Source: Myxococcota bacterium (GTDB taxonomy: Bacteria > Myxococcota_A > UBA9160 > SZUA-336). Taken from it: 64,000 nucleotides of DNA. Below the pieces are notes generated by a model. That model saw nothing but the letters and a program-made list of their open reading frames with translations, was not told the DNA's origin and ran no database searches. The stretch covers positions 80,107-144,106 of the forward strand of contig DATJZP010000067.1 in assembly GCA_035498875.1 (NCBI GenBank). The letters are read 5' to 3'. Within the stretch, counting starts at the first letter, position 1. Each line of letters opens with the position of its first letter. A program made the translations under genes and the position numbers. Positions 1 to 64,000 of this stretch are shown one piece after another.

Positions 1-325
1 ACAGTCCGACGCTGCGGCGTAGCTCGTTCAGATAGGCCTCGGCCTTGGGCAGGCCGATCGAGAGCACGAGCCGGCGGAACAGAAGTTGATCGTTTCCGCC
101 CGAAGCCGCCGCTGGAGGACGGCCCCTGCGTACACCGCCGGGCGCACGCTTGCCGGCCTTCTTCGCGGACGAGCGGGTCGTGTAGACCTGAGCGATCGAG
201 AGCTTGATGCCCTCGGCCTTTGCCTTGTCTACGACTTCTTTGGCGGGCATGGAGTGGGGCAGGGCTCGGATCCAGGCGGATTTGTTCACCCTGCCTGACT
301 TCGCTCGGCGTGTGGTCGTCGCCAT
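1..325 (-). CDS. hypothetical small Lys/Arg-rich protein, 3' end outside window (N-terminus MATTTRRAKSGRVNKSAWIRA...AKEVVDKAKAEGIKLSIAQVY)
   Basis: Reverse-strand ORF running off the window edge. ATG at 323-325 (rc) is preceded by a strong RBS AGGGAGAA. Not in the ORF track because there is no in-window stop. The N-terminus resembles small helical DNA/RNA-binding modules, but that resemblance is weak. Confidence 0.4.
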   Translation of the reverse strand, partial: MATTTRRAKSGRVNKSAWIRALPHSMPAKEVVDKAKAEGIKLSIAQVYTTRSSAKKAGKRAPGGVRRGRPPAAASGGNDQLLFRRLVLSIGLPKAEAYLNELRRSVGL

Positions 326-364
326 GAAACGTTTTCTCCCTTCAAGACATGAGCTGAATCGGAA

Positions 365-400
365 GACCGTCAGGTGTAAGACTTCCTTAGCCTGACGGTC
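365..400. terminator. 10-bp perfect inverted repeat GACCGTCAGG-N16-CCTGACGGTC, with a second short hairpin GGCAC-N6-GTGCC at ~404-419; lies downstream of the CoA-transferase gene and upstream of the small ORF
   Basis: Read directly from the sequence. There is no clear U-tract, so it could be a terminator or a regulatory hairpin. Confidence 0.3.
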
Positions 401-471
401 AGGCACCTGCGAGTGCCGAACTCTCATGTAGCGCGGATGTGGAGCTACAGCTATTCGCTCGCGGGGCCAGC

Positions 472-1677
472 CTAGGAGGACGCCGAGACCAGCACCCCTT
501 TCGCCGACAGGTCGGCGATCTCGGCCGGGTCCATGCCCAGCCGTTCGCGCAGCACCTGGGCATTGTGCTGCCCGAGCAGCGGCGCGCGCAGGTCGGGCAG
601 CTCGGGCATCGCGCCGAACTTGAACGGGAAGCCCGGGATCGTGACTTCTCCGAGCACGGGATCGGGCACGCGCCGCACCATCTCGCGCGCGATGAAGTAG
701 GGGTGAGTCACGGTGTCCTTCACCGACAGCACCGGCGCCGCCGCGACCCGGTGTTTCTCGAACACTCCGAGCGCGGCGTCGTCGCTCTTCTGCCTGGCGA
801 GCCAGCCCTCGATGATCGCGGTCAGCTCGACCTTGTTCTGCCCGCGCGCCGCGCCCGTCGCGAAGCGCGGATCGTTCACGAGCTCGGGCATGCCGAGCGC
901 GCGGCAGAAGCTCTCCCACTGGCGCTCCAGCACCAGCAGCACGATCCAGCCCTGCGGCGCCTTGTACACGCCCATCGGCCCGACCCAGGCGTGCTGCGCC
1001 CCGTGGCGGTGCGGCTCGACCGCGCCGCCGCTGTTCGCGTAGGCCTGCACGTTGCCCTCGTGACAGTGATAGAGCGCGTCGATCATCGACACGTCGATGT
1101 GTTGGCCCCTGCCCGTGCGCTCGCGGTGGAAGAGCGCGTAGCCGATCGCCGCGAAGGCGTGCACGCCGCTCTGCACGTCGCCGATGCCCGCGCCCACCCA
1201 CATCGGCGGCCCGTCGGGCGCGCCCGTCATCGACATCAGCCCCGAGAACGCCTGCGCGATCAGATCGAATCCTACCTTGTGAGAGAGCGGGCCGGTGCGG
1301 CCGAACGCCGAGATCGAGGCCATCACCAGCTTCGGGTTGCGCTTCGAGAGTGACTCGTAGGAGATGCCGCGCTTCTCCAGCACCCCGGGTCCGTAGTTCT
1401 CGACCACCACGTCCGCCTTCGCCGCCAGCTCGACCAGCAGCCCCGCGGCCTCGGGCTTCTGGAAGTCGACGCACAGACTCTTCTTCCCGCGGTTCTGCTG
1501 GATGTAGTAGACGCTGCGCTCGCCGACCCGCAGCGGCAACAGCCGCGCGGGATCGCCGCCCGGCGCCTGCTCGACCTTCACCACGTCGGCGCCCATCTCG
1601 GCCATCAGGCGAGTCACCGTGGGGCCCGCGAGATATTGCGTGAAGTCCACGACTCGGATTCCGGACAAGATCGACAT
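472..1677 (-). CDS. CoA transferase, family III (CaiB/BaiF-type)
   Basis: MSILSGIRVVDFTQYLAGPTVTRLMAEMGADVVKVE is the family-III CoA-transferase N-terminal signature. Start taken at the internal Met with GGAG RBS; the longer ORF extension is R-rich and looks like an artefact. Confidence 0.85.
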   Translation of the reverse strand: MSILSGIRVVDFTQYLAGPTVTRLMAEMGADVVKVEQAPGGDPARLLPLRVGERSVYYIQQNRGKKSLCVDFQKPEAAGLLVELAAKADVVVENYGPGVLEKRGISYESLSKRNPKLVMASISAFGRTGPLSHKVGFDLIAQAFSGLMSMTGAPDGPPMWVGAGIGDVQSGVHAFAAIGYALFHRERTGRGQHIDVSMIDALYHCHEGNVQAYANSGGAVEPHRHGAQHAWVGPMGVYKAPQGWIVLLVLERQWESFCRALGMPELVNDPRFATGAARGQNKVELTAIIEGWLARQKSDDAALGVFEKHRVAAAPVLSVKDTVTHPYFIAREMVRRVPDPVLGEVTIPGFPFKFGAMPELPDLRAPLLGQHNAQVLRERLGMDPAEIADLSAKGVLVSASS

Positions 1678-2244: not shown

Positions 2245-3051
2245 GTGAACGATCACTGCGTGGTGCGCGTCGGCGAGCGCTGGCACGTGTTCGGCATCAC
2301 CAAGCTCACGCCCGAGGTCGATCCGCACCAGGAGCGCTGGTTCTGTCACGGCTCGGGCGAGTCACTCGGCGAGGGCGGCTTCCGCGAGCACGCGCGGGTG
2401 TGTGACTTCGGCGCGCGCGCCTGGGCGCCCACGCTGGCATTCGACGGCGAGCGCTGGGTGATGATCTACGGGCCGGATCGGCTGCGCGCGGCGATCTGCG
2501 ACGATCCGCGGCTCGAGAGCTGGCACGAGGCCCCGTGCACGCTCGGCGGCGGCCCGCTCGGCGCGGTGCTGCGCGACGGCATGATCTTCCGCCTGGACGA
2601 CGACTCGTGGCTTCTGTACGCGACCGGGAAGCGCGGCCCCGAGGGCGTGGTCAGCGTGTGCGTGTCCGAGAACCTGCTCGACTGGCGCTTCGTGCGCTTC
2701 GCGCTGCGCACCGAAGGCTCTGCGAAGCAGCCAGCCTGGGGCGCCTGCGAGTCACCGTTCGTGTTCCGGCACGAGGGCGCCTACTGGCTCTCGATCACGC
2801 ACACGACCAGCGGGCAGGGGCCCGCCGAGTATCACGAGACGGTGCTGTTCCGCTCGCAGAACCCCTTCGACTTCGGCAGCTACGACGGCAGCGAGCGGAA
2901 CGTGGCGGCGCGGCTCGCGGCGCACGCGCCCGAGTATCTCGTCGAGCCCGAGAGCGGCCGCTGGTACGTGACCAGCGCGGGCTGGATCGGCGAGCGCTTC
3001 GGCACGGTGATTCCCGGCAGCGTCGCGATCCGCGCGCTGGAGTGGCGCTAG
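2245..3051 (+). CDS. hypothetical protein, beta-propeller / glycoside-hydrolase-like; start codon unresolved
   Basis: A well-conserved-looking frame (WHVFGITKL, GERWVMIYGP, WLLYATGKRG, YWLSITHTT) is open from inside the upstream gene. There is no ATG after 2179; candidate starts are GTG ~2245 or GTG 2086. Confidence 0.35.
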   Translation: MNDHCVVRVGERWHVFGITKLTPEVDPHQERWFCHGSGESLGEGGFREHARVCDFGARAWAPTLAFDGERWVMIYGPDRLRAAICDDPRLESWHEAPCTLGGGPLGAVLRDGMIFRLDDDSWLLYATGKRGPEGVVSVCVSENLLDWRFVRFALRTEGSAKQPAWGACESPFVFRHEGAYWLSITHTTSGQGPAEYHETVLFRSQNPFDFGSYDGSERNVAARLAAHAPEYLVEPESGRWYVTSAGWIGERFGTVIPGSVAIRALEWR

Positions 3052-3551: not shown

Positions 3552-3613
3552 GGGCGCCCGCGATTCTGGCTTTGGCGAGCGCCGCCCACAAGTCGGCGAA
3601 GGAGACCCACGAG

Positions 3614-4795
3614 ATGAGCCCCAGCTTCTCGAAGGCGCGTCTGGCGCGCATGCACGAGGCGATGTCGAGTCACGTTGCGAGCGGCGCGATCCCGGGCCTG
3701 GTCACTCTGTTGAGTCGCCGCGGAGAGACTCACGTGGACGCGATCGGCACGCGAGCCGCGGGCTCGAGCGCGCCGATGACGCGCGACACGCTGTTCCGGA
3801 TCGCATCGATGACGAAGCCGGTGACCGCGGCCGCGGTCATGATCCTGGTCGAAGAGTGCGTGCTGCGGCTCGACGAGCCCGTGGACCACTGGCTGCCCGA
3901 GCTGGCCGGCCGGCGCGTGCTGCGCTCGCTCGACGCCGCGATCGACGACACGGTCCCGTCGCCGCGCCCGATCACGGTGCGCGATCTCCTGACGTTCCGC
4001 CTGGGACACGGCTTCGTGCTGGCGCCGCCCGGTCGCTTCCCGATCCAGAAGGCGATCGAGGCCGCGGGGCTGGCGCCGGGTCCTCGCCCCAGCTCGTTTT
4101 CACCCGACGAGTGGATGAAGCGGCTCGGGTCACTGCCGCTCGTGTACGCGCCGGGCGAGCGCTGGATGTATCACACCGGCTCCGACGTGCTGGGCGTGCT
4201 GGTGGCGCGCGCGTCGGGGAAGTCGTTCGGCGCGTTCCTGAAGGAGCGCATCTTCGAGCCGCTCGGCATGCGCGACAGCGGCTTCCACGTTCCCGCCGGC
4301 GAGCTCGAGCGGCTGCCCGGCGCCTATGCCGGCAAGGAGCCGTTCGACGCGGCCGGGCGAGACAGCCGCTTCGCAAAGCCGCCCGCGTTCGAGTCGGGCG
4401 GGGGAGGGCTGATCTCGACCGCCGACGACTATCTCGCCTTCTGCCTGATGCTGCTGGGGAAGGGCAGTCACCGCGGCACTCGCGTGCTGTCCCGACCCGC
4501 CGTCGAGCTGATGACGACCAACCAGCTCAGTGACGCGCAGCGCGCGGAAGCCAGGCTCTTCTTCGGCGATCACTCCGGCTGGGGCTTCGGCATGGCGGTC
4601 GCGATCCGGCGCACCGAGCTCTGGAACACGCCCGGGCGCTTCGGCTGGGACGGCGGCTACGGAACGTCCGGCTACACCGACCCGGCCGAAGAGCTGGTGG
4701 GGATCCTGCTCACGCAGCGCATGATGGAGTCACCCGAGCCACCGCGCGTGTTCAGCGACTTCTGGACCTCGACCTACCAGGCGCTCGAGGGCTGA
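3614..4795 (+). CDS. serine hydrolase, beta-lactamase/transpeptidase-like family
   Basis: SMTK (SxxK) active-site motif. GGAG RBS before the ATG at 3614. Confidence 0.8.
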   Translation: MSPSFSKARLARMHEAMSSHVASGAIPGLVTLLSRRGETHVDAIGTRAAGSSAPMTRDTLFRIASMTKPVTAAAVMILVEECVLRLDEPVDHWLPELAGRRVLRSLDAAIDDTVPSPRPITVRDLLTFRLGHGFVLAPPGRFPIQKAIEAAGLAPGPRPSSFSPDEWMKRLGSLPLVYAPGERWMYHTGSDVLGVLVARASGKSFGAFLKERIFEPLGMRDSGFHVPAGELERLPGAYAGKEPFDAAGRDSRFAKPPAFESGGGGLISTADDYLAFCLMLLGKGSHRGTRVLSRPAVELMTTNQLSDAQRAEARLFFGDHSGWGFGMAVAIRRTELWNTPGRFGWDGGYGTSGYTDPAEELVGILLTQRMMESPEPPRVFSDFWTSTYQALEG

Positions 4796-4803: not shown

Positions 4804-5349
4804 TCAGCCGGCCTTGCCGGCTGACTCCGCCTCGGTCAGGGTCTTCATGGAAGACAGTCCCTGCTCGAACTGGCCGCCGACCATCTTGTCCGTGTTCATG
4901 AGCAGGCCGAAGGCCTTGCCCATGAAGCCGTTCTGGCCCTCCATCCGCCAGGTGACTCGCGTGGCCTGGCCCTGGGGCTCGAGGATGAAGCGCGCGGTGT
5001 TCGTGGCCTGGAACGGCTTCACGAAGTCGAGCCGCAGCGTGACCTGCTCGTCCGGCTTGGTCTCGGTCACCGTCATGCTGCCGGAGCCCATCTTCTGACT
5101 CTCCCAGGCGGACCTCGCGCCCACGCCGGAATCCGGGCCGCTGTACTCGATCTTCATGTTCGGGTCACCCAGCGCGAAGGGCGACCAGCCGTTCATCGCG
5201 CGCGGACTCACGATGTGCGGGTAGATGACTGCGGCCGGGGCCTGGATCGACGCGCTGCGCTCGATCACGAACGCGGTGGGCTGCAGGGCCACGATGATCG
5301 CCAGCACTCCCACGATCGCCAGCAGCCCGAGCACGATGAACTTCACCAT
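4804..5349 (-). CDS. SRPBCC-family (polyketide cyclase/dehydrase-like) protein with N-terminal TM anchor
   Basis: Hydrophobic N-terminus followed by a ~150-aa START/Bet v1-like region. Confidence 0.55.
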   Translation of the reverse strand: MVKFIVLGLLAIVGVLAIIVALQPTAFVIERSASIQAPAAVIYPHIVSPRAMNGWSPFALGDPNMKIEYSGPDSGVGARSAWESQKMGSGSMTVTETKPDEQVTLRLDFVKPFQATNTARFILEPQGQATRVTWRMEGQNGFMGKAFGLLMNTDKMVGGQFEQGLSSMKTLTEAESAGKAG

Positions 5350-5895: not shown

Positions 5896-6396
5896 TCACT
5901 CGGGGTAGTGGACGTCCGTGATCTCGAGCCGCTCGCGGCCGCGCGGCGTGGTCCAGGTCACTTCGTCGCCGAGGGCGTGCCCCAGCAGCGCCCGCGCGAG
6001 CGGGGAGGTGAAGGCGATCTTGCCCTGCGCGGGATCGGCCTCGTCGACGCCCACGATGCGACAGCGCCGCTCGCCGTCTTGCCCCGCTACGGTGACCCGG
6101 GCGCCGAAGCGCACCACCTCGACCGACTCGGGCGGGGGCGCCAGCTCGGCCGTGGCGATGCGCGCCTCGAGCGCCGCGCGGCGCTCGGCCAGTGCGCCCA
6201 GCCGGCGCGCGCGCTCCTTCTCGTTCGCAAGCGCAGTGACTCGCGCGCGCTCGGCCGCGAGCCCGCCGAGCTCTTCCTGCAAGAGCGCCAGGCCCGCGCG
6301 AGTCACATAGTTCGGCACGCCCGGCGGCAGCGGCGCACGCGGCCGGACGATCGGCGCGTCCTCGCCCGCCTCTTCGTCGGTGAACGCCTTGCTCAT
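5896..6396 (-). CDS. GreA/GreB-family transcription elongation factor
   Basis: Only the C-terminal 166 aa of the 615-aa track ORF is real; coiled-coil N-region plus C-terminal FKBP-like GreA domain (IAFTSPLARALLG). Confidence 0.7.
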   Translation of the reverse strand: MSKAFTDEEAGEDAPIVRPRAPLPPGVPNYVTRAGLALLQEELGGLAAERARVTALANEKERARRLGALAERRAALEARIATAELAPPPESVEVVRFGARVTVAGQDGERRCRIVGVDEADPAQGKIAFTSPLARALLGHALGDEVTWTTPRGRERLEITDVHYPE

Positions 6397-6423: not shown

Positions 6424-7638
6424 ATGCCGGGGGACGACTCGAGGGAGGGCTCGCTGCGCTGGCTCGTGCTCGCCAGCGTGGTGGGCATGAACTTCGTGGC
6501 GACCGGAATGGCCTGGACCTACGTGGTGGTCCTGGTCGCTCCCATCCTCGAGGACCTGCATCTCCAGCTGCTCGATTGGGGGAAGCTCTGGTCGGGTCTC
6601 TCGATGGGCGCGCTGCTCGGCGCGGTGCCCGCGGGCGTGCTCGGCGACCGCTTCGGTGTGCGCGGCGTGGTGACCGCGGGCGCGCTGGCCATGGCCGCCA
6701 CCCTGGGCCTGCGCGCGCTGGGCGGGAGCTTCGGCGTGGTGCTGGTCGCGATGGTGCTCTACGGAGTCACGCTGTCGCTGGTGAGCGCGAACCTGCCCAA
6801 GGCGCTGGGCATGTGGTTCCCGCCGCAGCAGCTCGGGCTCGTGAACGGGATCGCGCTGGCCGGAAACGGCGGCGGACAGGGCCTCGCCACCTTCGCGGCG
6901 CCGCTCGCGCTCGGCTGGGCGGGCGGCTGGCGCGGACTCACCGCCTGGCTGGCCCTGGGAGTCACTGCCCTGGCCGTGATCTGGGGCGTCTGCGTGCGCG
7001 AGCGCGGCCCGCGCCCCGAGCCCGGTGACACCCCGGCGGGCGCCGGCATCGGCAGTGCGCTGGGCGTGCCGGCCGTCTGGCTCGTGGCCGGCAGCTACTT
7101 CTTCTTCCTGGCCGGCTATCTCGGCGTGGTGTCGTATCTGCCTTCCTATCTGGTGAGCGCGCGCGGGCTCGCGCCGCAGGCCGCCGGCGGCATGCTCAGC
7201 ATCGTGCTCGCGTCCTACGTGCTGGGGAGCTTGATCTTCCCCGGTCTCTCCGACCGGATCGGCCTGCGCAAGGCGGTGTACGTGCCGGGGATCCTGCTCT
7301 CGGGCGCGATGGTCTACTGCTCGAGCGCGTTCACCGGCAGCACGCTGGTGGCCGTGATGGTGGTGTGGGGGCTCGCGGCCGGCGCGATCGCGCTCGTGTT
7401 CACGGTGCCGCTCGAGCTGCCCGAAATCGGCCCCGAGCTCGCGGGCTCGGCGATCGGCGCGACGCTCATGGCGGGCTTCGCGGGCGGGTTCATCTCGCCC
7501 ATCGTCGGGCTGGCGCTCGCGGAGCGCAGCCCGAGCGCCGCCTTCCTGTTCTGGGCCGGCTGCTACGCGCTGTCGGCGTTGGCGTTCGCGTTCCTGCCCG
7601 AGACCGGGAGCGCGCGCAGATACGGAGGAGCGAGATGA
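6424..7638 (+). CDS. MFS transporter
   Basis: 12-TM hydrophobic profile. The stop overlaps the next gene's start (ATGA). Confidence 0.8.
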   Translation: MPGDDSREGSLRWLVLASVVGMNFVATGMAWTYVVVLVAPILEDLHLQLLDWGKLWSGLSMGALLGAVPAGVLGDRFGVRGVVTAGALAMAATLGLRALGGSFGVVLVAMVLYGVTLSLVSANLPKALGMWFPPQQLGLVNGIALAGNGGGQGLATFAAPLALGWAGGWRGLTAWLALGVTALAVIWGVCVRERGPRPEPGDTPAGAGIGSALGVPAVWLVAGSYFFFLAGYLGVVSYLPSYLVSARGLAPQAAGGMLSIVLASYVLGSLIFPGLSDRIGLRKAVYVPGILLSGAMVYCSSAFTGSTLVAVMVVWGLAAGAIALVFTVPLELPEIGPELAGSAIGATLMAGFAGGFISPIVGLALAERSPSAAFLFWAGCYALSALAFAFLPETGSARRYGGAR

Positions 7639-12056: not shown

Positions 12057-12209
12057 GGCCGGAACCCTATCACACGGCCGGCGCGCGTTTCCAGGTTCCG
12101 CAGCAAGGGCGCGGACTTGCGCCGAAGATGAGAAATCTCGAATAACTCGTGCGAGTCACGAGTCGGATTCGCGACTCACCGCATTCCGGTGAGAGGAGGG
12201 TTGTGACTC

Positions 12210-15936: not shown

Positions 15937-16105
15937 CTCCTGCGTCCGTTCCCGCCAGGCGCTCGCGGGCTCACGAGCCGGCAACTCCATGGCGCGCCGG
16001 CTTCAGAGCATCTTTCCGCCAACCGATCGGAAAGCTGGAAGGAATCACCCCCGATGCCGGCCCTCCCAGCCCTGGCTTTCGACAAGTAGGAGCCTCGCTC
16101 GCGGC

Positions 16106-50529: not shown

Positions 50530-50530
50530 G

Positions 50531-53019: not shown

Positions 53020-54155
53020 GCGATGCAGTGCAAGAGTACGAAGGCGCCCTGGACCGAGGGCTCGAGGGCGTAGTCACGTGCACCACCTCGATCAGCACGA
53101 TCGAGGGTACGACGCTCCTCTACCGCGGGTACACGATCGAGGACCTGGCCAAGAACGCCACCTTCGAAGAGGTGGTCTATCTGTTGTGGTACGGCTGGCT
53201 GCCGACCCGACGCGAGCTCGACGAGTTCTCGACCGACCTGCACCACAGCATGGCGCTGCCGCCCGAGGCCTTCGGCTGGTTCCACGGCCTGCCGACGCGC
53301 GTGCACCCGATGGACTTCCTGCACGCGGTGATCGCGGGACTCACGCTGCACGACCCCGACGCCAACCTGGTGAACGCCGCCGCCACGCTGCGCAAGTCGA
53401 CGCGGCTCGCGGCGCGCGTCGGCACGATCGTGGCCGCCTACCAGCGCGTGCGCTCGGGTCAGTGGCCGCTGCAGCCGCTGCCCGAGAAGTCGATCGCCTG
53501 GAACTTCCTCTACATGCTGAAGGGCGAGGAGCCGGACGAGCAGACCGTGCGCCGCTTCGACACGTGTCTCATCCTGCACGCCGACCACGAGCTGAACGCG
53601 TCGGCGTTCTCGGCGCGAGTCACCTCGAGCACGCTCTCGGGCCTCTACTCGAGCGTGATGGCCGCGATCGGCACGCTGAAGGGCCCGCTGCACGGCGGCG
53701 CGAACGAGCAGGTGGCGCGCATGCTGCTCGAGATCAAGTCGCTCGACCGGCTCGAGGGCTGGCTCGACAACACGCTGCGGTCGGGCGAGAAGGTGATGGG
53801 CTTCGGTCACCGCGTCTACAAGGAAGGCGACCCGCGCGCCAAGATCCTGAAGCGCATGAGTCAGGAGATCACGCGCGAGAACGGTCACCCGGAGCTGTAC
53901 GAGATGAGCGCCCGGCTCGAAGAGCTGATGCAGGCCAAGAAGGGACTCATTCCCAACGTCGACTTCTACTCGGCGTCGGTCTACTACAGCATGGGCATCC
54001 CGATCGATCTGTTCACGCCGGTGTTCGCGACCAGCCGCATCTCGGGCTGGTGCGCGCACGTGCTCGAGCAGTACCAGAACAACCGGATCTACCGCCCGCG
54101 CGGCAAGTATGTCGGGCCCACCGGCGAGGTCTACGTCCCGATCGACGAGCGCTAG
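53016..54155 (+). CDS. gltA: citrate synthase (short ~380-aa form; citrate or 2-methylcitrate synthase)
   Basis: GFGHRVYK and catalytic His/Asp context. Confidence 0.9.
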   Translation: MSDAVQEYEGALDRGLEGVVTCTTSISTIEGTTLLYRGYTIEDLAKNATFEEVVYLLWYGWLPTRRELDEFSTDLHHSMALPPEAFGWFHGLPTRVHPMDFLHAVIAGLTLHDPDANLVNAAATLRKSTRLAARVGTIVAAYQRVRSGQWPLQPLPEKSIAWNFLYMLKGEEPDEQTVRRFDTCLILHADHELNASAFSARVTSSTLSGLYSSVMAAIGTLKGPLHGGANEQVARMLLEIKSLDRLEGWLDNTLRSGEKVMGFGHRVYKEGDPRAKILKRMSQEITRENGHPELYEMSARLEELMQAKKGLIPNVDFYSASVYYSMGIPIDLFTPVFATSRISGWCAHVLEQYQNNRIYRPRGKYVGPTGEVYVPIDER

Positions 54156-54180: not shown

Positions 54181-54614
54181 ATGGCGAGCCTGCTCCTCGC
54201 GGTCGCATGCGTGCTCGCGGCGACTCGAATCTGCGGCGCGCGGGTGCGCCGGGTCGGACAGCCGCCGCTGCTGGGCGAGCTGACGCTGGTGCGCGAAGAG
54301 ATCATGGCCACGGGCGTCGGAGTGGGTGTGGCCATCCCGCACGCGCAAGTGCCGGGTCTGGCTGCGCCCGTGGCCGCGCTCGGGCTGGCCGAGCCGGCGG
54401 TCGATTTCGGCGCGCCGGACGGGAGCCGGCGCGCGTGGTGGTGCTGGTCGTGACTCCCGCGGGGGACGACCGGGTGCAGCTCGAGCTCCTGGCCGAAGTG
54501 TCCCGGCTCTTTGCAAGCCCGGCCACGCGCCGGCGGGTTGCGCGTGCGCGGAGCTTCGAGGAGCTTACGGGGGCGCTGCGCGAGGCGCCGATCCGCGGCG
54601 AGGAGCATCGATAA
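54181..54614 (+). pseudogene. PTS EIIA(Ntr)-like regulatory domain ORF interrupted by a 1-nt deletion in a G-run at ~54425
   Basis: Frame 1 encodes REEIMATGVGVGVAIPHA...VDFGAPDG. Frame 2 continues PARVVVLVVTPAGDD...LLAEVSRLFASP...SFEELTGAL, which together make a typical EIIA(Ntr) sequence. Confidence 0.5.
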
Positions 54615-54618
54615 CCGG

Positions 54619-55866
54619 ATGGCAGTGCTGATCTGGGCTGGATTCCTGGCGCTGGTCCTCGTGTTCCTGGCGATGGACCTCGGCGTCTTCAACAAGACGC
54701 CGCGCGTGATCAGCACCCGCGAGGCGCTCGCCTGGACGCTGTTCTACGTCTCGCTGTCGCTCGCCTTCAGCGGCGTGGTGTACGCGCTCTTCCAGCACGA
54801 CTGGGGCGGCATCGCCAGCAACGCGCCGGGTCATCTGGACGGCAAGCACGCGGTGGTGCAGTACCTGACCGGCTACGTGGTCGAGTACTCGCTGTCACTC
54901 GACAACGTGGTCGTGATCGCGCTGATCTTCAGCTACTTCCGCGTGCCGCTCGCCTATCAGCACCGGGTCCTGTACTGGGGCGTGCTGGGCGCGCTGGTCT
55001 TTCGCGGCATCATGATCGGCGCGGGCGCCGCGCTGCTCGCGCACTTCAGCTGGATCTCGTACGTGTTCGGCGTGTTCTTGATCGTCTCGGCCGCGCGCAT
55101 GCTGGTGGCCAGCGGCGAGAGCATGTGCCCCGAGGAGAACAAGCTCTACCGGGCGGTGCGCAAGCTGTATCCGATCCACGACGACTTCGTCGAGCACAAG
55201 TTCTTCATCCAGCGCGACGGCCAGAGACTCGCCACCCGGCTGTTCGTGGTGTTGCTCTTCGTGGAGACCTCGGACGTGATGTTCGCGGTCGACTCGATCC
55301 CCGCGATCTTCGCGGTCACGAGTCACCCGTTCCTGGTGTTCAGCTCGAACGTGTTCGCAGTTCTGGGGCTGCGCAGCCTGTACTTCGCGCTGGCGCCCAT
55401 GATCGAGCACTTCCGCTACATGAAGGCGAGCCTCGTGCTCTTGCTCGCGTTCGTGGGCGTGAAGATGATCCTGGCGCACCACATCGAGATTCCGAACAGC
55501 GCTTCGCTGGGCGTGATCCTGGGGATCCTGGGCGTGGGCGCGCTGGCGTCGGTGATCGGCTCGCGCCGTGAGTCGGCCCGGCTCGGCTCGCCGGTCGGCC
55601 CGGCCGAGCTCGAGGCGCTGGCGCGACTCACGCTGCGCGCCGCGCGCCGCATGGTGGTGCTGGTGATCGGGGGGACGGTCCTGCTGGTCGGCGTGGCGAT
55701 GCTCGTGCTGCCTGGCCCCGGGCTGGTGGTCGCGCCCGCGGGCCTCGCGATCCTGGCCACCGAGTTCCTGTGGGCGAAGCGCCTGTTGGCGCGCGTGCGC
55801 GATTCGGCGGCGACCGCGGCCTCGACCGTCTCGGGCACGCTGCGCCGCGGGTCGCATGGGAGATAG
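54619..55866 (+). CDS. TerC-family integral membrane protein fused to a C-terminal PGPGW-type transmembrane domain
   Basis: TerC motifs (SLDNVVVIALIF; second repeat FAVDSIPAIF) plus C-terminal LVLPGPGLVVAPAGLAILATEFLWAKR. Confidence 0.8.
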   Translation: MAVLIWAGFLALVLVFLAMDLGVFNKTPRVISTREALAWTLFYVSLSLAFSGVVYALFQHDWGGIASNAPGHLDGKHAVVQYLTGYVVEYSLSLDNVVVIALIFSYFRVPLAYQHRVLYWGVLGALVFRGIMIGAGAALLAHFSWISYVFGVFLIVSAARMLVASGESMCPEENKLYRAVRKLYPIHDDFVEHKFFIQRDGQRLATRLFVVLLFVETSDVMFAVDSIPAIFAVTSHPFLVFSSNVFAVLGLRSLYFALAPMIEHFRYMKASLVLLLAFVGVKMILAHHIEIPNSASLGVILGILGVGALASVIGSRRESARLGSPVGPAELEALARLTLRAARRMVVLVIGGTVLLVGVAMLVLPGPGLVVAPAGLAILATEFLWAKRLLARVRDSAATAASTVSGTLRRGSHGR

Positions 55867-57907
55867 CCCCGAGAGCGCTCCCGGGTCGCCCCGCTGGCAG
55901 ATCGGCCTGCTCGCGGCGATGGTGCTCTTGCTCGAGCTCTCGTTCATCCGCCAGGTGCCGGCGGAAGTGCGCGCGATCTCGTACTTCACCAACCTGATGT
56001 TCACCGCCGGCTTCTCCGGCATGGGCATCGGCTGCATCCTGGCGCGCCAGAAGTCACTGGCGTTCGCGCTGCCGCTGGGTCTGTGGCTGGTGTTTGCGTT
56101 CATGGTCTTTGGCCGCGGCATCGTGATCCAGCCCGGCGCCACCGCAGTGCACTACTTCCTGCAGTACCCCGACCTGGCGGAGAGCGCGCCCGAGCTGCCG
56201 CTGTTTCCCGCCGCGGCTGCGATCTTCCTGTTCGCGGCGGTGCCGTTCGTGGCGTTGGGCCAGGCGCTGGCGGGGGCCATGGCGGGCCACCCGCGGCTCT
56301 CTGCGTACGGCTGGGACATCGCCGGGAGTCTCTCGGGCACGATCGCGTTCTCGCTGTCGTCGTGGGCGGGGATTCCGCCGTGGATCTGGCCGATTGCGAT
56401 CGGGGTGGCCTGGGCCGCCGCGCTCGAGCGCGTGGTCTGGCGCCGCGCGCTGTTCGCGCTGGCCGGCGTGCCGTTCCTGTGGCTCGCGACCTCGGCGCGT
56501 GACTCGGCCTGGAGCCCCTACTACTACGTGCAGAGCGAGACTGTGCCGGAGGGGCTGCGGGTGTTCGTGAATTCGAGCTTCCACCAGCTGGCGCTCGACT
56601 TCCGCGCCCAGACGCCCGAGGGCAGGGCGCTCTCCAAGTTCATGCTCGGCCGCTTCGGCCGTCCGTATCAGCTCTACCGCGACATGCACGGCGGCCAGAA
56701 CCCGAAGAAGGTGCTGATCCTCGGCGCGGGCACGGGCAACGACGTGTACGTGGCCCGTTCGAACGACGCGGCCGAGATCGTGGCGGTCGAGATCGACCCC
56801 GTGATCCTGCGGCTCGGCCACGAGCGCAACCTGGCGCGGCCCTACGACGACCCGCGCGTCCGCGCGGTGGTCGACGATGCGCGGCACTTCCTGCGCACCA
56901 CCGACGAGCGCTTCGACCTGATCGTGTTCGGCACGCTCGACTCACAGGCGCTGCTCTCGGGCTCGGCCAATCTGCGGCTCGAGAACTACGTCTACACCCG
57001 TGAATCACTCGAGGACGCGCGCCGCATCCTCGCCGACCACGGCGTGGTCACGCTGTACTACTCGATCTTCGAGCCCTGGCTGTACGAGCGTATCTTCTCG
57101 ACCGTGCGCGGCGCATTCGGCGACCAGGCGATGCTGATCAGCGACGGCGAAGTGTTCCTGTTCAACACGGTGATCGTGGCAACGAAGGGCGAGGGCACGT
57201 GGAGCGGCTCGCCGCAGATCCTCGAGCAGTACGGGCACGGCCTGCCCTCGAGCGACGACTGGCCCTTCATCTACCTGGAGCGGCCCACGATCGCGCCGGT
57301 GTATCTCGAGCTGCTGGCCGTCGTCGCGGTGGTGATGGTCGCGGCGTTCGCTCTGTTGCGGCGGCTCCAGCCGGTGCGCGGCTGGTATCTCAACTTCTGG
57401 CTGTTGGGCCTGGGCTTCACGCTGATGGAGTCGAGCGCGATCGTGCGGCTCGCGCTCTTGTTCGGCAGCACCTGGTCGGTGAACGCGCTGGTGTTCACGG
57501 CCTTCCTGCTCACGGTGTTCATTGCGAATTACACCGTTCTGCGTCGCTGGGCGCCGCCGCTCCGCGCCGCGTGGGCGGGGCTGTTCCTCGCGATCGCCGT
57601 GAACTACGCGTTTCCACTGCCGGCGCTGTTCGCGCTGGCAGCGCCGCTGCGCGCGCTGGCGTGCGCGGCGCTGGTGGGGCTTCCCGTGTACTGCGCCTCG
57701 GTGTGTTTCAGCCGACTGTTCGCGGCCGAGCCGAGCGTCGGCTATCCGCTCGGCATCAACCTGATCGGCGCAATGGCGGGCGGGCTGGTCGAGTACGCGT
57801 CGATGGCGCTCGGCATGCGCGCGGTGTGGCTGGTGGCGCTGGGCGTGTACGTGTCGGCGTTCCTCGCCACGCGCTTCCTCGCTCCCGCCGGCGCGCGGAG
57901 CGGCTGA
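55856..57907 (+). CDS. spermidine-synthase-like aminopropyltransferase-fold domain embedded in a polytopic membrane protein
   Basis: Central VLILGAGTGNDV...DLIVFGTLDSQA SAM/Rossmann-like region flanked by ~7 N-terminal and ~6 C-terminal TM helices. Confidence 0.7.
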   Translation: MGDSPESAPGSPRWQIGLLAAMVLLLELSFIRQVPAEVRAISYFTNLMFTAGFSGMGIGCILARQKSLAFALPLGLWLVFAFMVFGRGIVIQPGATAVHYFLQYPDLAESAPELPLFPAAAAIFLFAAVPFVALGQALAGAMAGHPRLSAYGWDIAGSLSGTIAFSLSSWAGIPPWIWPIAIGVAWAAALERVVWRRALFALAGVPFLWLATSARDSAWSPYYYVQSETVPEGLRVFVNSSFHQLALDFRAQTPEGRALSKFMLGRFGRPYQLYRDMHGGQNPKKVLILGAGTGNDVYVARSNDAAEIVAVEIDPVILRLGHERNLARPYDDPRVRAVVDDARHFLRTTDERFDLIVFGTLDSQALLSGSANLRLENYVYTRESLEDARRILADHGVVTLYYSIFEPWLYERIFSTVRGAFGDQAMLISDGEVFLFNTVIVATKGEGTWSGSPQILEQYGHGLPSSDDWPFIYLERPTIAPVYLELLAVVAVVMVAAFALLRRLQPVRGWYLNFWLLGLGFTLMESSAIVRLALLFGSTWSVNALVFTAFLLTVFIANYTVLRRWAPPLRAAWAGLFLAIAVNYAFPLPALFALAAPLRALACAALVGLPVYCASVCFSRLFAAEPSVGYPLGINLIGAMAGGLVEYASMALGMRAVWLVALGVYVSAFLATRFLAPAGARSG

Positions 57908-57910: not shown

Positions 57911-58330
57911 ATGGTACGTGAGCTCGAGATCGCGCCCGCCAAGGCCGGCCTGCACGAAGTCACGGCCGAGATCGAGTCACTCGTGGCCGACTGGGTGCGC
58001 GTGACCGGCAAGCGCGAGGGGCTGTGCACGGTGTTCGTGCGCCACACCTCGGCGAGCCTCCTGATCCAGGAGAACGCCGACCCCGACGTGCGCCGCGATC
58101 TGGACGCGTTCTTCGCGCGGCTGGTTCCCGAAGGCGATCCGCTCTACCGGCACACCACCGAGGGGCCCGACGACATGCCCTCGCACGTGCGCTCGGCGCT
58201 CACCTCGACCTCGCTCTCGATCCCGATCCTCGCCGGACGGCTCACGCTCGGCACCTGGCAGGGCGTGTATCTCTGGGAGCACCGCCGGAAGCCCAGCCGG
58301 CGCGAGCTCGTGGTGCATCTGGCGGAGTGA
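57911..58330 (+). CDS. yjbQ: YjbQ-family (UPF0047) secondary thiamine-phosphate-synthase-like protein
   Basis: 139 aa; GLCTVFVRHTSASL and TWQGVYLWEHR motifs. Confidence 0.85.
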   Translation: MVRELEIAPAKAGLHEVTAEIESLVADWVRVTGKREGLCTVFVRHTSASLLIQENADPDVRRDLDAFFARLVPEGDPLYRHTTEGPDDMPSHVRSALTSTSLSIPILAGRLTLGTWQGVYLWEHRRKPSRRELVVHLAE

Positions 58331-58332
58331 CT

Positions 58333-59541
58333 CTAGTTGCGGGCGATCGCCACGCGCTGGCCTTCGGACAGGCCGGAGGCCTCGCCCACGACCAGCGCCT
58401 CGCCGCCCGACAGACCTTCCTCGACGGCGACCTGGTCACCGCGCTCCGCGCCCGGGCGCACCAGCTGGCGGCGCAGCTTGCCCTCGGTGACCACCCAGGC
58501 GTAGCTGCCGCTCGAGTCGCTGCGGATCGCGCCGCGCGGCGCCAGCACGAGCGGCGGACCGCCCTTCTCGGCGGGCGTGTCGCCGGCCAGGAACGAAAGG
58601 CGCACGCTCATGTCGGGCAAGAGATACGGATCGGGGTTCAGGATCCCGACTTCGACCTTGAGCGTGCCCTTCGAGCGGTTCACCTGCGGGTACATCTTCA
58701 CGACCTTGGCCTCGTAGCGCTTGTCGGGGTAGGCGTCGGGGGTGACGAACGCCTTCTGGCCGAGGCGCACGCGGTTCAGGTCGGCCTCGGCGATGTCGAC
58801 CTCGGCGCGCAGGTCGGAGAGGTTGGCCATGCGGATCAGGTCACCCGAGCCGGCGAAGCCGCCGGGCGTGGCCATCTCGCCCACCTCTTTCAGCTTGGCC
58901 AGCACCACGCCGTCGGCGGGCGCGCGCAGCACGGTGTAGTCGAGGTTCACCTGTGATTGCGCGATCTCGGCCTCGAGCTGGGCGATCTGCGCCTTGTCGA
59001 CGCGCAGCTGGGTCTCGGCCGTGTCGAGCTCGGCCTGCGAGGCGTAGTTCTGCACGCGCAGCTTGCGCTGCCGGTCGGCCTGGATCTGGTGCAGGTCGAG
59101 ATTCGCGCGCGCCACCGCCAGGCGCGCCTTCTGGCTCTCGAGCGCCGCGCGGTAGTCGCGGTCGTCGAGCTGGACCAGCGGCTCGCCCTGCTTCACGTGG
59201 TCGCTCTCGTCCACGAAGAATTTCTCGATCCGCCCGGGGATGCGCACGCCGATCGAGATGTACTTGTCGGCAGTCACCACGTAGCCCGAGCCCGAGAGCA
59301 CCGCGACCGAAGGCGCCGCGCCGCCCGGCTCGATGCGCGAGGCGTACGCGACCTGCACGATCTTCGGGCCGCCGAGTGACAGCCACACGACGAGCGCCAC
59401 GAGCACCAAGACCACGGCGGTGCCGATCGCGATCCAGCGCGTGGGCACGCGCGGGGGCGGCTTGCGCGTCGCGGTCGTCCCGCGGTCGATCCGCAGGGCC
59501 TGGAGGTCGTCGCGCAGGTTGCGTGGGGCTTCGGCCGCCAT
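58333..59541 (-). CDS. efflux periplasmic adaptor (HlyD/MacA-like membrane-fusion protein)
   Basis: Signal anchor, coiled coil, beta-barrel. Last gene of the ABC efflux operon. Confidence 0.8.
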   Translation of the reverse strand: MAAEAPRNLRDDLQALRIDRGTTATRKPPPRVPTRWIAIGTAVVLVLVALVVWLSLGGPKIVQVAYASRIEPGGAAPSVAVLSGSGYVVTADKYISIGVRIPGRIEKFFVDESDHVKQGEPLVQLDDRDYRAALESQKARLAVARANLDLHQIQADRQRKLRVQNYASQAELDTAETQLRVDKAQIAQLEAEIAQSQVNLDYTVLRAPADGVVLAKLKEVGEMATPGGFAGSGDLIRMANLSDLRAEVDIAEADLNRVRLGQKAFVTPDAYPDKRYEAKVVKMYPQVNRSKGTLKVEVGILNPDPYLLPDMSVRLSFLAGDTPAEKGGPPLVLAPRGAIRSDSSGSYAWVVTEGKLRRQLVRPGAERGDQVAVEEGLSGGEALVVGEASGLSEGQRVAIARN

Positions 59542-60734: not shown

Positions 60735-61910
60735 TCAGAACACCTCGCGCAGGGTCGCCGCGACGCTGCGCCGCGATGCGCCCAGCGCGGGCAGCCAGCC
60801 GGAGATGATGCCGATGAAGAACGCCACGAAGAGTGACTGGATCAGGATCGCGTCGGTGATCACGAAGCCGGTGAGCGGCCCGAGCTGCGGCCCGGTCCCG
60901 CCGCTGGTCGAGGTCATCTTGCGCAGGAACAGGGTGAGTCCGAGCGAAGACAGCGCGCCCACCACGCCGGCCGCCGTCGACAGCATCACCGCTTCGGCGA
61001 GCAGGGTCGAGAACACCGTGCGCTTGCGGAAGCCGATCGCCTTCAGGACCGCGATCTCGCCCGTGCGCTCGCGCACCGACATGCTCGCGGTGTTCGCCGC
61101 CACGAACACGATGCAAAGAGTCACTACGCCGGTCACGATCTCGATCACATAGATCAGCTGCTTCAGGCTGCCGAAGAAGCCGCGAATGAAGTCCTTCTCG
61201 GTCTCGGACGCGGTCTCGGCGTCGCTGTTCTTGAACATCTCGTCGATCTCGCGCATGACGCCGTTCACGCGCTCGGGATCGTCGACGCGCGTCCAGATCA
61301 TGCCCGTCTGATCGCCGTTGCCGCCGATCGCGGCCAGCGCCTGCACGAGATACTCGCGCTGGAAGTAAAAGCTGTTCGAGCTGTCTATCGGGATCTCGCC
61401 GACGATGCGGAAGGAGAGGTTCACCGGGAACACGGTGCTCTGCAGCGTGACCACGTCGCCGACCTTCCACTTCTGCTCGTTGAGCACGCGCCGGCCCACC
61501 AGCGCGGAGTCACGGTATTTGCGGAAGTCGTCGAGGGCCTTCGGGTCGACCTTCCAGTCGGCATAGACCTTGCCGAACTCCTCGGGGTCGACGGCGAAGT
61601 TCGGAAACGAAACGCCCTTGGTCGGATCGATCGCGCCGCCGAACCACTGCCAGCTGAGCGCGGCGACGACGCCGGGGATGCCGCGCACCTTGTTGAGATA
61701 GGCGTAGGGCAGGGAGTAGACGATACCGGCCTGGTTGTGAGTCGAGATGCGCGTGTTCGCGGCGATCGAGTTCACCACGCCGTCGAGCCCCGCCGGCATG
61801 GTGCGCAGTGCGCAAACCAGCGCGATGGCCAGGGCGATCGTGGCGCCGGTCAGGATCGAGCGCAGCTTGTTGCGGCCCAGGTTGCGGATCACGAGCGGCA
61901 GATATTTCAT
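60735..61910 (-). CDS. ABC transporter permease, FtsX/MacB-type (first of two)
   Basis: Only the 3' 391 codons of the 647-aa track ORF are real; IAVLKAIGF motif. Confidence 0.85.
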
Positions 61911-62608
61911 CCCGCGGGCCCCCGCGCGGCCCCGCCGGGCCGTTTCTCGAGCAACACGCCCTTGTCGAGGTGGATCACCTCGTCGACCCACTTCTCGGCG
62001 CGCGGGTCGTGAGTCACGATCACGACCGTCTTGCCGAAGTCGCGGCGCAGCGTCTGCAGCAGCGACAGGATCTCCTCGGCGTTCTTCGCGTCCAGGTCGC
62101 CGGTGGGCTCGTCGGCCACGATCAGCTCGGCGTCGGTGACGATCGAGCGCGCGATCGCCACGCGCTGCTGCTCGCCGCCCGAAAGCTGGCGCGGCAGGTG
62201 GTCGGCGCGGTCGGCCAGCCCGACCACGCGCAGCGCGGTCTCGGCGCGCTGCCGGCGCTCGGCCTTCGACAGGTGCGTGAGCAGGAGCGGCAGCTCCACG
62301 TTCTCGACCGCGTTCAGCACCGGAATGAGATTGAAGAACTGGAACACGAAGCCGACGGTGTGCGCGCGGAACTCGGCGAGCTCGTCTTCCGACATCTCGT
62401 TCAGCCGCTTGCCGAACACGGTCACGTCGCCGGAGTTCGGCCGGTCGAGGCCGGCCAGCACGTTGAGGAGCGTCGACTTGCCCGAGCCGGACGGCCCCAT
62501 CAGCGCCACGAAGCGCTGCTTGTCGACGTGGAGACTGACGCGCTCGAGCGCGTGGATCTCGTCCGCGCCGCGCCGATACAGCCGAGACACGTTGACAAGA
62601 TCGATCAA
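61907..62608 (-). CDS. ABC transporter ATP-binding protein (MacB/LolD-type)
   Basis: Walker [18 protein letters not shown], Walker [17 protein letters not shown] start 6 nt after GAGGAG. Confidence 0.8.
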
Positions 62609-62686
62609 GCTCGACTCCTCGTGGGAGCCGATGATATCGGAACCACCGCCGGTGCGCGCTGCCGCGCGCACCCTGCACGCAGTCAG

Positions 62687-64000
62687 CTACAGGCCGTGGC
62701 GCATCTCCGCGATCGCATCGATCAGGCGATCGAGCACGCGCCGCACGTCGTGCGCGGGCGGGCGCTCCGCGGGCGCGCGGTCACCCGCGGGCTCGGGCGG
62801 GTTCAGATCCTGGTGGTCGACGAACTCTGCGATCACCCGGTGCAGCTTGCCGCTCGAGAGCCGGCGCCGATAGTGGATCAAGCGGTCAGTCGCGTAGTCG
62901 ACGCCGTCGCCCGTGATCCGATCACGGCGGTTGATCACGGCGCTGCGACGCGCGACTTCGCGCAAGAGCTCGGCCAGCGGGCGCCGCTCGTGCAGAGCCG
63001 CGGCGCGCATCAGCGCGAGGTGCGAGCGCTGCAGCCGGCGGGCCATGCGCCGCCGCGTGGGAGTCGAGCGGCGATCGCCGCGCGCGGCGTAGCTGGAGAG
63101 CGCGATCTCGAGAAACTCGTCGCCGCAGAGCGGCACGGGCGCGCCGGCGTAGCGCAGCGGTAGCTCGCGCAACAGGTCGCGCATGCTGAACACCGCGTTC
63201 CAGGTGAGTCCGTCCGGCACGCGTTGCCGTCCGCGCGCGGAGCGCGCGCGCTCGAAGTAGGCGAACGCGCGCCGGAAGCGCTCGAGCTCGCGGCGCCGCG
63301 CGCGAGTCACGAAGGCCGCGGTCTCGGGCCGCAGGCCGAGCTTGCGCACCAGCAGGCGCTCCTTGGTAGCGGCGAACTCGCGGTCGAAGCTGCGCAGACA
63401 CGGGTCGTGCGCGAACTCCTCGAGCGGGCGCTTCCTGCCCTCGAGCAGGCAGGCGCGGATCTGCGCGAAGCACTGCGCGATGTAGCGCGCCTTCACGCGT
63501 TGCTCGGGGATCGTGGTCGACCAGCGCGTGTCGTCGTCGAAGCGGTACTCGCGGTGGTAGAGCCCGAACTGGCGCACCGAGCCGTAGTCCACGATCCCGC
63601 CGTCGGCCAGCACGTTGTCGCCGTCCCAGTCGAGCCAGCAGAACACGTACTCACTCTCGAAGATCGCGGCCGTGCGCGCGAACGCGCGCGCGCAGGCGTC
63701 CGCCAGGTGGCGGTAGCGCGCCGCGCCGGGGGCGAGCTGGGGCCAGTCGCCGTTCGCGATCTGGCGCTCGCAGAACACGTCGATCGCGGCGCGCAGGCGC
63801 GGCAGGTCGCCTTGCTTCAGCGGCGCGAAGAAGTGAGACGGGCGCAGCAGGTTCCGGCCGGCGCGCACGTTGATCGCGTGACCGTTCGGCAGCGCGATCA
63901 CCGCCAGCACGCGCTCGGTCGGGATGCCGTTGCGGTGGAAGGTCTCGGAGAGCAGCGCGGCCGAGATGCCCTCGCCCAGCGCCGCGGTGCCGCAGCCGTA
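62687..64000 (-). CDS. SelO/YdiU-like (UPF0061) pseudokinase-fold protein, divergent; N-terminus beyond the window
   Basis: [21 protein letters not shown] aligns with the SelO HGVMNTDNMSLLGLTLDYG region. The frame is open to the window edge. Confidence 0.4.

Follow-up and report, generated by a model that had tools for sequence, protein, structure and literature searches.

We analysed a 64-kb stretch of an uncultured Myxococcota genome (contig DATJZP010000067.1 of assembly GCA_035498875.1, positions 80,107 to 144,106, here referred to as the window), with a GC content of 70.4% and ordinary metabolic genes, for one short DNA word, the heptamer GAGTCAC. Genes were called by codon log-likelihood, using a model fitted to the window itself, a home-made procedure and not a standard gene finder. 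This gave 65 open reading frames (ORFs) over 95% of the window, and the 60 with a score above 20 entered the analyses. The window genes are ordinary metabolic, transport and signalling genes only. On the plus strand GAGTCAC occurs 40 times and its complement GTGACTC 22 times, making 62 core sites (0.97 per kb). The nonamer GAGTSACTC, where S stands for G or C, accounts for 15 sites, 8 as GAGTCACTC and 7 as GAGTGACTC. These exact counts are those that a preliminary description of the window had reached by eye. All 40 of its example positions are real sites, 35 within 2 bases and five off by 9–11 bases (23191, 29325, 53628, 61129 and 62022 for sites at 23182, 29314, 53617, 61118 and 62011), and its 15 nonamer positions match real sites within 3 bases.

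From base composition (order 0) 6.4 copies of the core 7-mer are expected, and Markov models of orders 1–3 give 10.3, 6.8 and 12.6. Over 100 dinucleotide shuffles the number was 10.3 ± 3.0 with a maximum of 19, and the 15 nonamers compare with 0.3–0.75 (Markov) or 0.64 ± 0.79 (dinucleotide shuffles). The excess of both words survives Markov orders up to 3 within the window. We also permuted synonymous codons among the 60 genes, keeping the proteins and the global codon usage. Inside genes, 54 core copies are present against 4.2 ± 1.9 expected (200 codon permutations, maximum 9), and GAGTCAC ranks first among all 7-mers under this null. Genes hold 87% of the copies. The 8 of 62 outside called genes are about twice as dense as those inside, called genes leaving 5% of the window; four of the eight supply a TGA stop and two form the inverted pair at 12140–12215. 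The mechanical ORF list had suggested a gene-end signal, which was rejected, as with proper frames only 4 of 62 sites supply a stop.

The relatives compared were syntenic loci around the citrate synthase and P450 genes of soil Myxococcota metagenome-assembled genomes (MAGs), numbered here from L001; the closest homologues of both genes, where named, come from Myxococcota MAGs. Besides the window, the motif-rich loci are L001 (GcL4-1, GCA_044450765.1) with 0.52 core sites per kb, L002 with 0.48, L005 with 0.39, L006 with 0.52, L068 with 0.95, L069 with 0.94 and L073 (GCA_973790005.1) with 2.30. The last, at 218241–239569 of the 405-kb contig CCZKBH010000022.1, has 49 GAGTCAC in 21.3 kb, the highest density seen, and 37 AGTSACT against 3.5 expected. 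In contrast, the motif-poor sisters (L008–L013 and L070–L072) have 0–0.19 per kb, and more distant Myxococcota of equal GC have essentially none. Pooling gives 90 core copies over 122 kb of rich loci and 13 over 319 kb of poor ones, a rich/poor contrast of 10–17-fold, with the sisters at roughly 80–85% nucleotide identity. The window is 0.17–0.24 substitutions per aligned site from the sisters and 0.12–0.22 from the rich loci. The pentamer AGTCA is 9-fold up in rich genomes, and base composition is the same to the second decimal. No comparably enriched word of their own, or dialect, was found in L008–L034. Thus the word is confined to one young sub-lineage of uncultured soil Myxococcota.

When the 62 sites were aligned, C was found at position −1 in 38 of them, T at +1 and C at +2 were favoured, and no conservation appeared outside −2 to +3. 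The consensus is c-GAGT-S-ACTC-g, symmetric about an odd centre S, and the full nonamer makes up 24% of core sites in the window and 27% in L073. A longer repeat element or dispersed repeat of the repetitive extragenic palindrome or miniature inverted-repeat transposable element type was rejected on the absence of flank conservation and the location of 87% of copies in genes. Several related words are enriched with GAGTCAC, each 5–12-fold: GACTCAC (38), GAGTGAC (37), GAGACAC (25), GAGATAC (21) and GAGAGAC (16). GACTGAC and versions with a G/C-rich centre show no enrichment in the window. Core and family words together number 199 (3.1 per kb), compared with 6.9 family words per kb in L073. Meanwhile some words one substitution away are depleted in the window, with GCGTCAC present 4 times against about 20 expected and GAGGCAC 0 times against 8–16. 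Runs alternating between S and W (A or T) occur 77 times at a length of 9 nt, 20 times at 10 nt and 16 times at 11 nt, against 25, 5 and 3.6 in third-order Markov simulation. Family words and alternating runs rise together in rich genomes, so we regard them as one phenomenon of recent origin. The preliminary description, whose excess holds, had missed this family, the depleted neighbours and the confinement to a very young sub-lineage.

Core spacing is exponential in the 64-kb window (coefficient of variation 0.99; Kolmogorov–Smirnov p = 0.28 against random) with no mod-3 signal, and placement along genes is uniform and random-like. These data bear on the idea that the words are bound by an abundant nucleoid-associated or chromosome-organising protein and that selection acts on how dense they are overall, as proposed for the periodicity of HIP1 (highly iterated palindrome 1). 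The even spread (7–18 family words per 4-kb bin), the turnover of sites and the tolerated degenerate family would suit such a protein. With spacing random-like and no candidate protein found, we consider it very improbable.

The word was said to fall in all reading frames, and so it does. On the sense strand GAGTCAC is distributed 15/11/9 among the frames and GTGACTC 12/7, the third frame being impossible for it owing to TGA. It was also said to force rare codons. TCA (51), AGT (60) and ACT (59) are 2–6 times as common in the window as other A/T-ending four-fold codons, almost always in the context of the word; for example, TCA is followed by C in 46 of 51 cases and preceded by GAG in 20 of 51. 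The peptides encoded at the sites are diverse, including ESL, ESP, RVT, GVT, xSH, VTx and xDS. Some over-represented words of this genome are coding-linked, which speaks for an origin in codon usage, codon-pair preference, recurring peptides or faulty assembly. The heptamer GTATCTC lies on the sense strand in 20 of 20 cases, 18 of them as G TAT CTC (Tyr-Leu), and rich genomes use it in 33% of x-Y-L contexts where sisters do so in 5%. Its behaviour is that of a family member (GAGATAC), since the reverse orientation would require ATA or AGA, codons that are close to forbidden here. The octamer CGAGGGCA stands 20:5 on the sense strand. As for the core heptamer, the codon shuffle, its presence on both strands and in all frames, the diverse peptides, and enrichment of the same word in 8 independent assemblies from three archives (NCBI, ENA and JGI), with some orthologous sites in common, refute such an origin, and we give it practically no weight. 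The excess does not stem from a few repeated protein motifs, and action at the DNA level, as proposed at the outset, agrees with all of these results. The cause is very probably DNA-level and sequence-specific. In our reading the word acts as DNA, and through neither RNA nor protein.

The preliminary description further likened the strand bias to that of Chi-like or other polarised motifs, and the Chi-like reading is not supported. GTGACTC contains TGA and so can be used on the sense strand in only two of three frames, which predicts a GAGTCAC:GTGACTC ratio of 3:2 there, where 35:19 was seen in the window. As two thirds of the coding sequence is plus-strand, the two effects together put the expected plus share of coding sites at 53%; 37 of 54 were found, a weak residual (p = 0.03; plus versus minus genes, Fisher p = 0.037). 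Stop-codon exclusion and the 2:1 excess of plus-strand genes thus explain most of the bias. A polar signal read by RecBCD/AddAB or FtsK and oriented with replication, like Chi or the FtsK-orienting polar sequences (KOPS), would gain from the over-representation of a 7-nt word, the 40:22 plus bias, its residual, and a GC skew that is weakly positive over 36–58 kb of the window. However, other family words carry no plus residual (GAGTGAC 20:17, GAGACAC 12:13), and GACTCAC tracks gene sense on both strands. Plus-strand genes of L073 give 25:13, near the 60% coding expectation, and syntenic loci lean the opposite way (L002 2:4, L005 1:4). In addition, a quarter of the sites are palindromes, and the density is 5–20 times that of known Chi or KOPS. 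A Chi- or KOPS-like role therefore retains hardly any probability.

As a separate matter, CGAGGGCA/TGCCCTCG occurs at 27 sites against 3.8 expected (for example at 10923, 15537, 21368, 208 and 1053). As a polar candidate of the Chi or KOPS kind it was rejected, its strands being even (13:14); it is probably coding-linked, in a Glu-Gly context, and not a polar signal. TCGCGCA (94 against 38) resembles this case.

The word also reaches into the proteins. E-S-[LPHQR] contexts carry it in 51% of cases in rich genomes against 2% in sisters, and the figures are 62% against 3% for [RG]-V-T, 38% against 6% for V-T-[LPHQR], 44% against 17% for [RGSC]-D-S and 29% against 7% for x-S-H. Permissive contexts are thus nearly saturated. 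Tripeptides that can encode the word are inflated, being 1.1–2.6 times commoner in rich genomes and 1.7–5 times in L073, which shows how far a process of this sort can go against codon bias and alter the make-up of proteins, with tripeptides up to five-fold in the richest genome. The same signature was described for uptake sequences by Findlay and Redfield (PMC2817400).

Among the sites alignable in at least two rich genomes, 16 are unique to one genome and 8 are common. As most sites are lineage-specific, accumulation is continuing in parallel, by gains that are largely independent. Between rich genomes 12–17% apart, 14–67% of core sites are kept (33% pooled), and family words are kept in 27.6% of cases against 16.8% for matched alternating non-family words, these pairs not being independent. 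With ancestral states inferred from motif-free outgroups, six of the seven positions have been altered in gains, by no fewer than eight kinds of substitution (C>A, G>A, C>G, G>C, C>T, G>T, T>C and A>C). The site at 53617 in the citrate synthase gene reads GCGTCAC or GGGTCAC in motif-poor sisters, and its gain changed CGT (Arg) to AGT (Ser); another non-synonymous gain turned GCC (Ala) into TCC (Ser). The site at 61118 reads GCGTGAC in sisters and arose by two synonymous changes, GTC ACG to GTG ACT, a route seen twice. The columns of sites are the more variable ones among motif-free outgroups (0.31 against 0.20, p = 0.003), and so weakly constrained positions are preferred. Two simpler modes of gain were rejected. 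A single C>A signature (CpG to ApG) held for 16 of 20 cases at position 2 in a first region, a number inflated by shared ancestry, and for only 1 of 7 independent sites in a second. Replacement of multi-nucleotide blocks was suggested by 3–4 pairwise differences per site, and outgroup-based reconstruction gave a mean of 1.9 changes against 1.74 in controls.

The neighbours of the word have changed as well. Rich genomes have 8 GCGTCAC against 45 and 0 GAGGCAC against 9, with CGTCAC at 0.44 times and AGGTAC at 0.26 times. Of the GCGTCAC sites present in outgroups, rich genomes retain 8%, compared with a retention of 42% between outgroups, and in 29% the site now reads GAGTCAC; outgroup GAGGTAC has become GAGATAC in 36% (both as site-by-genome pairs, which are not independent), and GAGTCGC is unaffected. 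Such results fit biased short-patch repair or context-specific mutagenesis, in which a lineage-specific mismatch-processing enzyme would resolve G-N-G-N-S-A-C mismatches to GAGWSAC and the word itself would have no function. This main rival would also explain why sites are mostly lineage-specific and no better conserved than generic 7-mers, why base composition is unchanged, and why the changes per new site hardly exceed those of controls. However, a repair enzyme normally deals with one mismatch type, not with at least eight at six of seven positions, and the C>A dominance of the first region is absent from the second. Moreover, retention is above that of matched controls and two-step synonymous routes recur. 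We regard biased repair as unlikely.

What we favour, tentatively and at a little under even odds, is a lineage-specific sequence-recognising protein of HIP1 or uptake type, which favours DNA carrying the word in repair, recombination or transmission. The sub-lineage would have, and its sisters would be without, a protein recognising a degenerate, partly palindromic word. DNA bearing the word would gain an advantage in one of these processes, and heptamers one or two substitutions away would be replaced by it where the protein tolerates this. The twofold symmetry of the word suggests that the recogniser is probably a dimer. It might be a methyltransferase, either orphan or restriction-linked, that may or may not work with a nicking partner; a receptor for uptake or recombination is the other candidate. 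We infer from the pattern of sites both the existence of a specific protein and its kind and advantage. It is possible, and somewhat less probable than the favoured reading as a whole, that the system arose or was acquired horizontally in Myxococcota so recently that rich and motif-free genomes differ by 15–20%, and that it goes back to one gained gene.

Several points weigh against a recognising protein of this kind. Core sites are kept in 33% of cases against 38% for generic 7-mers with three A/T, unlike those of HIP1. All alternating S/W runs of 9–11 nt are up 3–4 times, which is odd for a single binding site. The near-elimination of GCGTCAC and GAGGCAC beside an untouched GAGTCGC is an asymmetry for which biased repair would account no less well. 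Among about 47 window proteins scanned against Pfam there was no DNA methyltransferase, no nuclease and no competence protein. Finally, about 250 kb of fragments underlie the comparative counts, and their lineages are partly non-independent.

A further rival is a DNA uptake signal proper, in which a competence receptor such as a type IV pilus minor pilin prefers the word, as with the uptake signal sequences (USS) of Pasteurellaceae and the DNA uptake sequences (DUS) of Neisseriaceae. A density of about 1 per kb in both orientations and all frames, poorly conserved positions and inflated tripeptides are found there too (cf. PMC2817400). The word is lineage-specific like the DUS dialects (PMC3630211), and one intergenic inverted pair is present. 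Nevertheless it is short, partly palindromic and degenerate, where known uptake signals are 9–12 nt, asymmetric and sharply defined, and there is no competence gene in the window. We therefore hold a strict uptake signal to be improbable, less so than a nucleoid protein and more so than biased repair.

The sites are listed in Table 1.

Table 1. Core heptamers, nonamers and the intergenic cluster of family words in the window
Feature	Position	Strand	Context
GAGTCAC within GTGAGTCAC	705–711	+	CoA-transferase gene 472–1677(−), sense GTG ACT C
nonamer GAGTGACTC	1348–1356	.	gene 472–1677(−)
GAGTCAC	1611–1617	+	gene 472–1677(−)
nonamer GAGTCACTC	2359–2367	.	gene 2245–3051(+)
GAGTCAC	2749–2755	+	gene 2245–3051(+)
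GAGTCAC	3667–3673	+	beta-lactamase-family gene 3572–4795(+)
GAGTCAC	4727–4733	+	gene 3572–4795(+)
GAGTCAC	4952–4958	−	gene 4804–5349(−)
GAGTCAC	6236–6242	−	GreA-like gene 5896–6396(−)
GAGTCAC	6300–6306	+	gene 5896–6396(−)
GAGTCAC	6764–6770	+	MFS gene 6424–7638(+)
GAGTCAC	6959–6965	+	MFS gene 6424–7638(+)
GAGTCAC	11152–11158	−	gene 10816–11652(+)
GAGTCAC	11756–11762	+	AhpC/TSA gene 11601–11975(−)
intergenic family-word cluster	12140–12215	.	CGAGTCACGAGTC 12152–12164, GACTCAC 12173–12179, GTGACTCGTGAC 12203–12214; 10-nt perfectly complementary arms, 40 nt apart
core sites of the cluster	12153, 12203	+, −	within the cluster
GAGTCAC	14993–14999	−	LMF1 gene 14497–15936(+)
GAGTCAC	15328–15334	−	gene 14497–15936(+)
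GAGTCAC	15886–15892	−	gene 14497–15936(+)
GAGTCAC	16127–16133	+	codons 2–3, histidine-kinase gene 16124–17524(+)
GAGTCAC within GTGAGTCAC	16825–16831	+	gene 16124–17524(+)
GAGTCAC	17232–17238	+	gene 16124–17524(+)
nonamer GAGTCACTC	17503–17511	.	near end of gene 16124–17524(+)
nonamer GAGTGACTC	19331–19339	.	junction of genes 17514–19343 and 19340–20668
GAGTCAC	19730–19736	+	P450 gene 19340–20668(+)
GAGTCAC	20183–20189	+	P450 gene 19340–20668(+)
nonamer GAGTCACTC	20830–20838	.	aldo/keto reductase gene 20703–21632(+)
GAGTCAC	21888–21894	+	enoyl-CoA hydratase gene 21629–22459(+)
nonamer GAGTGACTC	22612–22620	.	upstream or N-terminal part of APH-family gene
nonamer GAGTCACTC	22976–22984	.	gene 22682–23497(+)
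GAGTCAC	23182–23188	+	gene 22682–23497(+)
GAGTCACTCAC, nonamer plus AC	23450–23460	.	gene 22682–23497(+)
GAGTCAC	28032–28038	+	outer-membrane factor gene 28016–29413(+)
GAGTCAC	29314–29320	+	gene 28016–29413(+)
nonamer GAGTGACTC	30084–30092	.	glycosyltransferase gene 29415–30572(−)
GAGTCAC	30285–30291	−	gene 29415–30572(−)
GAGTCAC	31509–31515	+	NMO gene 30615–31739(+)
GAGTCAC	31743–31749	+	TCA is TGA stop of gene 31746–32033(−)
GAGTCAC	33681–33687	−	uncalled stretch 33572–33982
GAGTCAC	36188–36194	+	gene 35912–36769(+)
nonamer GAGTCACTC	37450–37458	.	Zn-peptidase gene 36774–37646(−)
GAGTCAC	37936–37942	+	P-II gene 37877–38218(−)
GAGTCAC	39197–39203	−	gene 39103–40590(+)
GAGTCAC	39884–39890	−	gene 39103–40590(+)
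nonamer GAGTGACTC	40103–40111	.	gene 39103–40590(+)
nonamer GAGTCACTC	40845–40853	.	TetR gene 40769–41359(+)
GAGTCAC	41299–41305	+	gene 40769–41359(+)
GAGTCAC	43244–43250	+	ABC ATPase gene 42330–43259(+); GCGGCGC in L001
nonamer GAGTGACTC	46577–46585	.	gene 46286–47734(−); not kept in L001 or L002
GAGTCAC	47242–47248	−	gene 46286–47734(−); common to L002 only
GAGTCAC	50528–50534	+	TCA is TGA stop of gene 50531–51610(−); common to L002
GAGTCAC	50652–50658	−	gene 50531–51610(−); common to L002
GAGTCAC	53617–53623	+	citrate synthase gene; common to window, L001, L002, L005
GAGTCAC	54450–54456	−	TGA stop of ORF 54181–54453(+)
GAGTCAC	55320–55326	+	TerC gene 54619–55866(+); common to L001; CCGGCAC in L002
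GAGTCAC	56499–56505	−	gene 55856–57907(+)
nonamer GAGTCACTC	57974–57982	.	YjbQ gene 57911–58330(+)
nonamer GAGTGACTC	58325–58333	.	TGA stop of gene 57911–58330(+)
GAGTCAC	61118–61124	+	MacB-type permease gene 60735–61910(−); common to L001, L006
GAGTCAC	61507–61513	+	window-specific; GCGTCGC-like words in other genomes
GAGTCAC within GTGAGTCAC	62011–62017	+	window-specific; GCGTGAC or close variant in others
GAGTCAC	63304–63310	+	gene 62687–64000(−); GAAGCAG in L001

The intergenic cluster, flanked by the AhpC/TSA gene and by gene 12210–13130 (no Pfam match), may be an operator or a hairpin. No core heptamer lies between 23457 and 28031. The window shares with L068 and L069 an efflux operon of the resistance-nodulation-division type (pump, adaptor and outer-membrane factor, 23629–29413). 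In L070, L071 and L073 other genes stand at this place, flanked by those for enoyl-CoA hydratase and the glycosyltransferase: methyltransferase/YCII/sigma-70; FtsH; and a 98-aa HNH protein with an unassigned gene. A conserved 205-aa gene stands between the LMF1 and histidine-kinase genes in L068–L071 and L073, and is apparently absent from the window, which has only a 187-nt gap at 15937–16123. ORF 54181–54453 resembles a remnant of a 560-aa Na+/H+ exchanger-PTS_EIIA_2 gene found in L002, and neither L001 nor L002 has the 684-aa gene 55856–57907, which shows a weak spermidine-synthase domain. The HindIII site AAGCTT occurs neither in the window (3.6 expected) nor in any motif-rich locus, compared with 14 copies in 112 kb of sister loci, and TCCGGA, GGTACC and AGGTAC are 2.4–4 times rarer in rich genomes. 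This deficit may represent lineage-specific restriction-site avoidance.

Few non-coding signals in bacterial genomes are as strong as hyper-abundant short words such as HIP1, USS and DUS. To our knowledge, the classic ones are all old and fixed across large clades, where cause and effect are inseparable. Here, motif-free sisters and a graded density (0.4–2.3 per kb) make co-varying gene content testable in existing MAGs, and the same setting allows drive, selection and mutation bias to be told apart. If the system did arise as recently as suggested above, this would be the first hyper-abundant word whose origin is caught in progress; one gained gene, which could be found by presence and absence among MAGs, would have rewritten codon choice and even amino-acid sequence genome-wide. 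The word is also a sharp k-mer marker for binning the lineage and spotting recently imported genes. In the searchable literature the word GAGTCAC itself gave only eukaryotic AP-1 and primer matches, and no description of such a word in Myxococcota was met, although absence of matches is no proof.

Among known systems, restriction and methylation sites come to mind, since GAGTC lies inside the word and GTSAC inside the nonamer. GANTC is a site of CcrM/HinfI type, GAGTC of PleI/MlyI/BstNBI type and GTSAC of Tsp45I type, and restriction sites are usually avoided, not enriched. GANTC (253 against about 173 expected) and GTSAC (188 against 170) are not notably enriched as such, and the window showed no methyltransferase or restriction gene that would match them. 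Regulation of the CcrM type, with GANTC depleted in genes, was rejected on the same GANTC count, which exceeds that from composition. Very short patch (VSP) repair, by Dcm and Vsr at CCWGG in enterobacteria, acts on one mismatch type, T:G, with modest excesses. It is alike in that the target word is enriched while particular words one substitution away are depleted by directional conversion, and differs in that here many substitution types are involved and the excess is 10-fold or more. Chi (PMC8022716) is likewise an over-represented 7–8-mer in core genes. However, it is asymmetric, far sparser and strongly co-oriented with replication, and co-orientation beyond gene strand amounts to a weak residual in the window and is absent from L073.

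USS and DUS (PMC2817400, PMC3630211, PMC1939737) share with our word a density of about 1 per kb without replication polarity, genic sites at weakly constrained positions, inflated tripeptides, lineage dialects and an accumulation compatible with molecular drive. They differ in being 9–12 nt, asymmetric and sharply defined, and in that a receptor and natural competence are established for their taxa. HIP1 (GCGATCGC, cyanobacteria; PMC4390886, PMC5861425) is also a short, twofold-symmetric word occurring at about 1 per kb or more, inside and outside coding sequence, in every frame and with non-preferred codons. Variants one substitution away from HIP1 are enriched along with it, close relatives may differ in having it or not, and its function is debated. 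The differences lie in the sequence and the phylum, in the unpaired S centre, with about a quarter of sites fully palindromic, and in the excess, here 5–17-fold (7-mer) or about 25-fold (9-mer), where HIP1 reaches 15–300-fold. In addition, sites here are not clearly conserved beyond controls, Pfam scans of the window gave no cognate methyltransferase, and the origin is much younger, with sisters at 80–85% nucleotide identity lacking the word. HIP1 proper was rejected, the word differing from GCGATCGC and the homologues coming from Myxococcota MAGs. The origin of HIP1, USS and DUS is still argued, and so is the function of HIP1 (PMC5861425, PMC4390886). Of the possibilities named in the preliminary description, the HIP1-like or uptake-type one fits best and the Chi-like one is not supported. 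The word is neither HIP1 nor a known USS or DUS, and by analogy its behaviour appears to be of the HIP1 or uptake type in another phylum.

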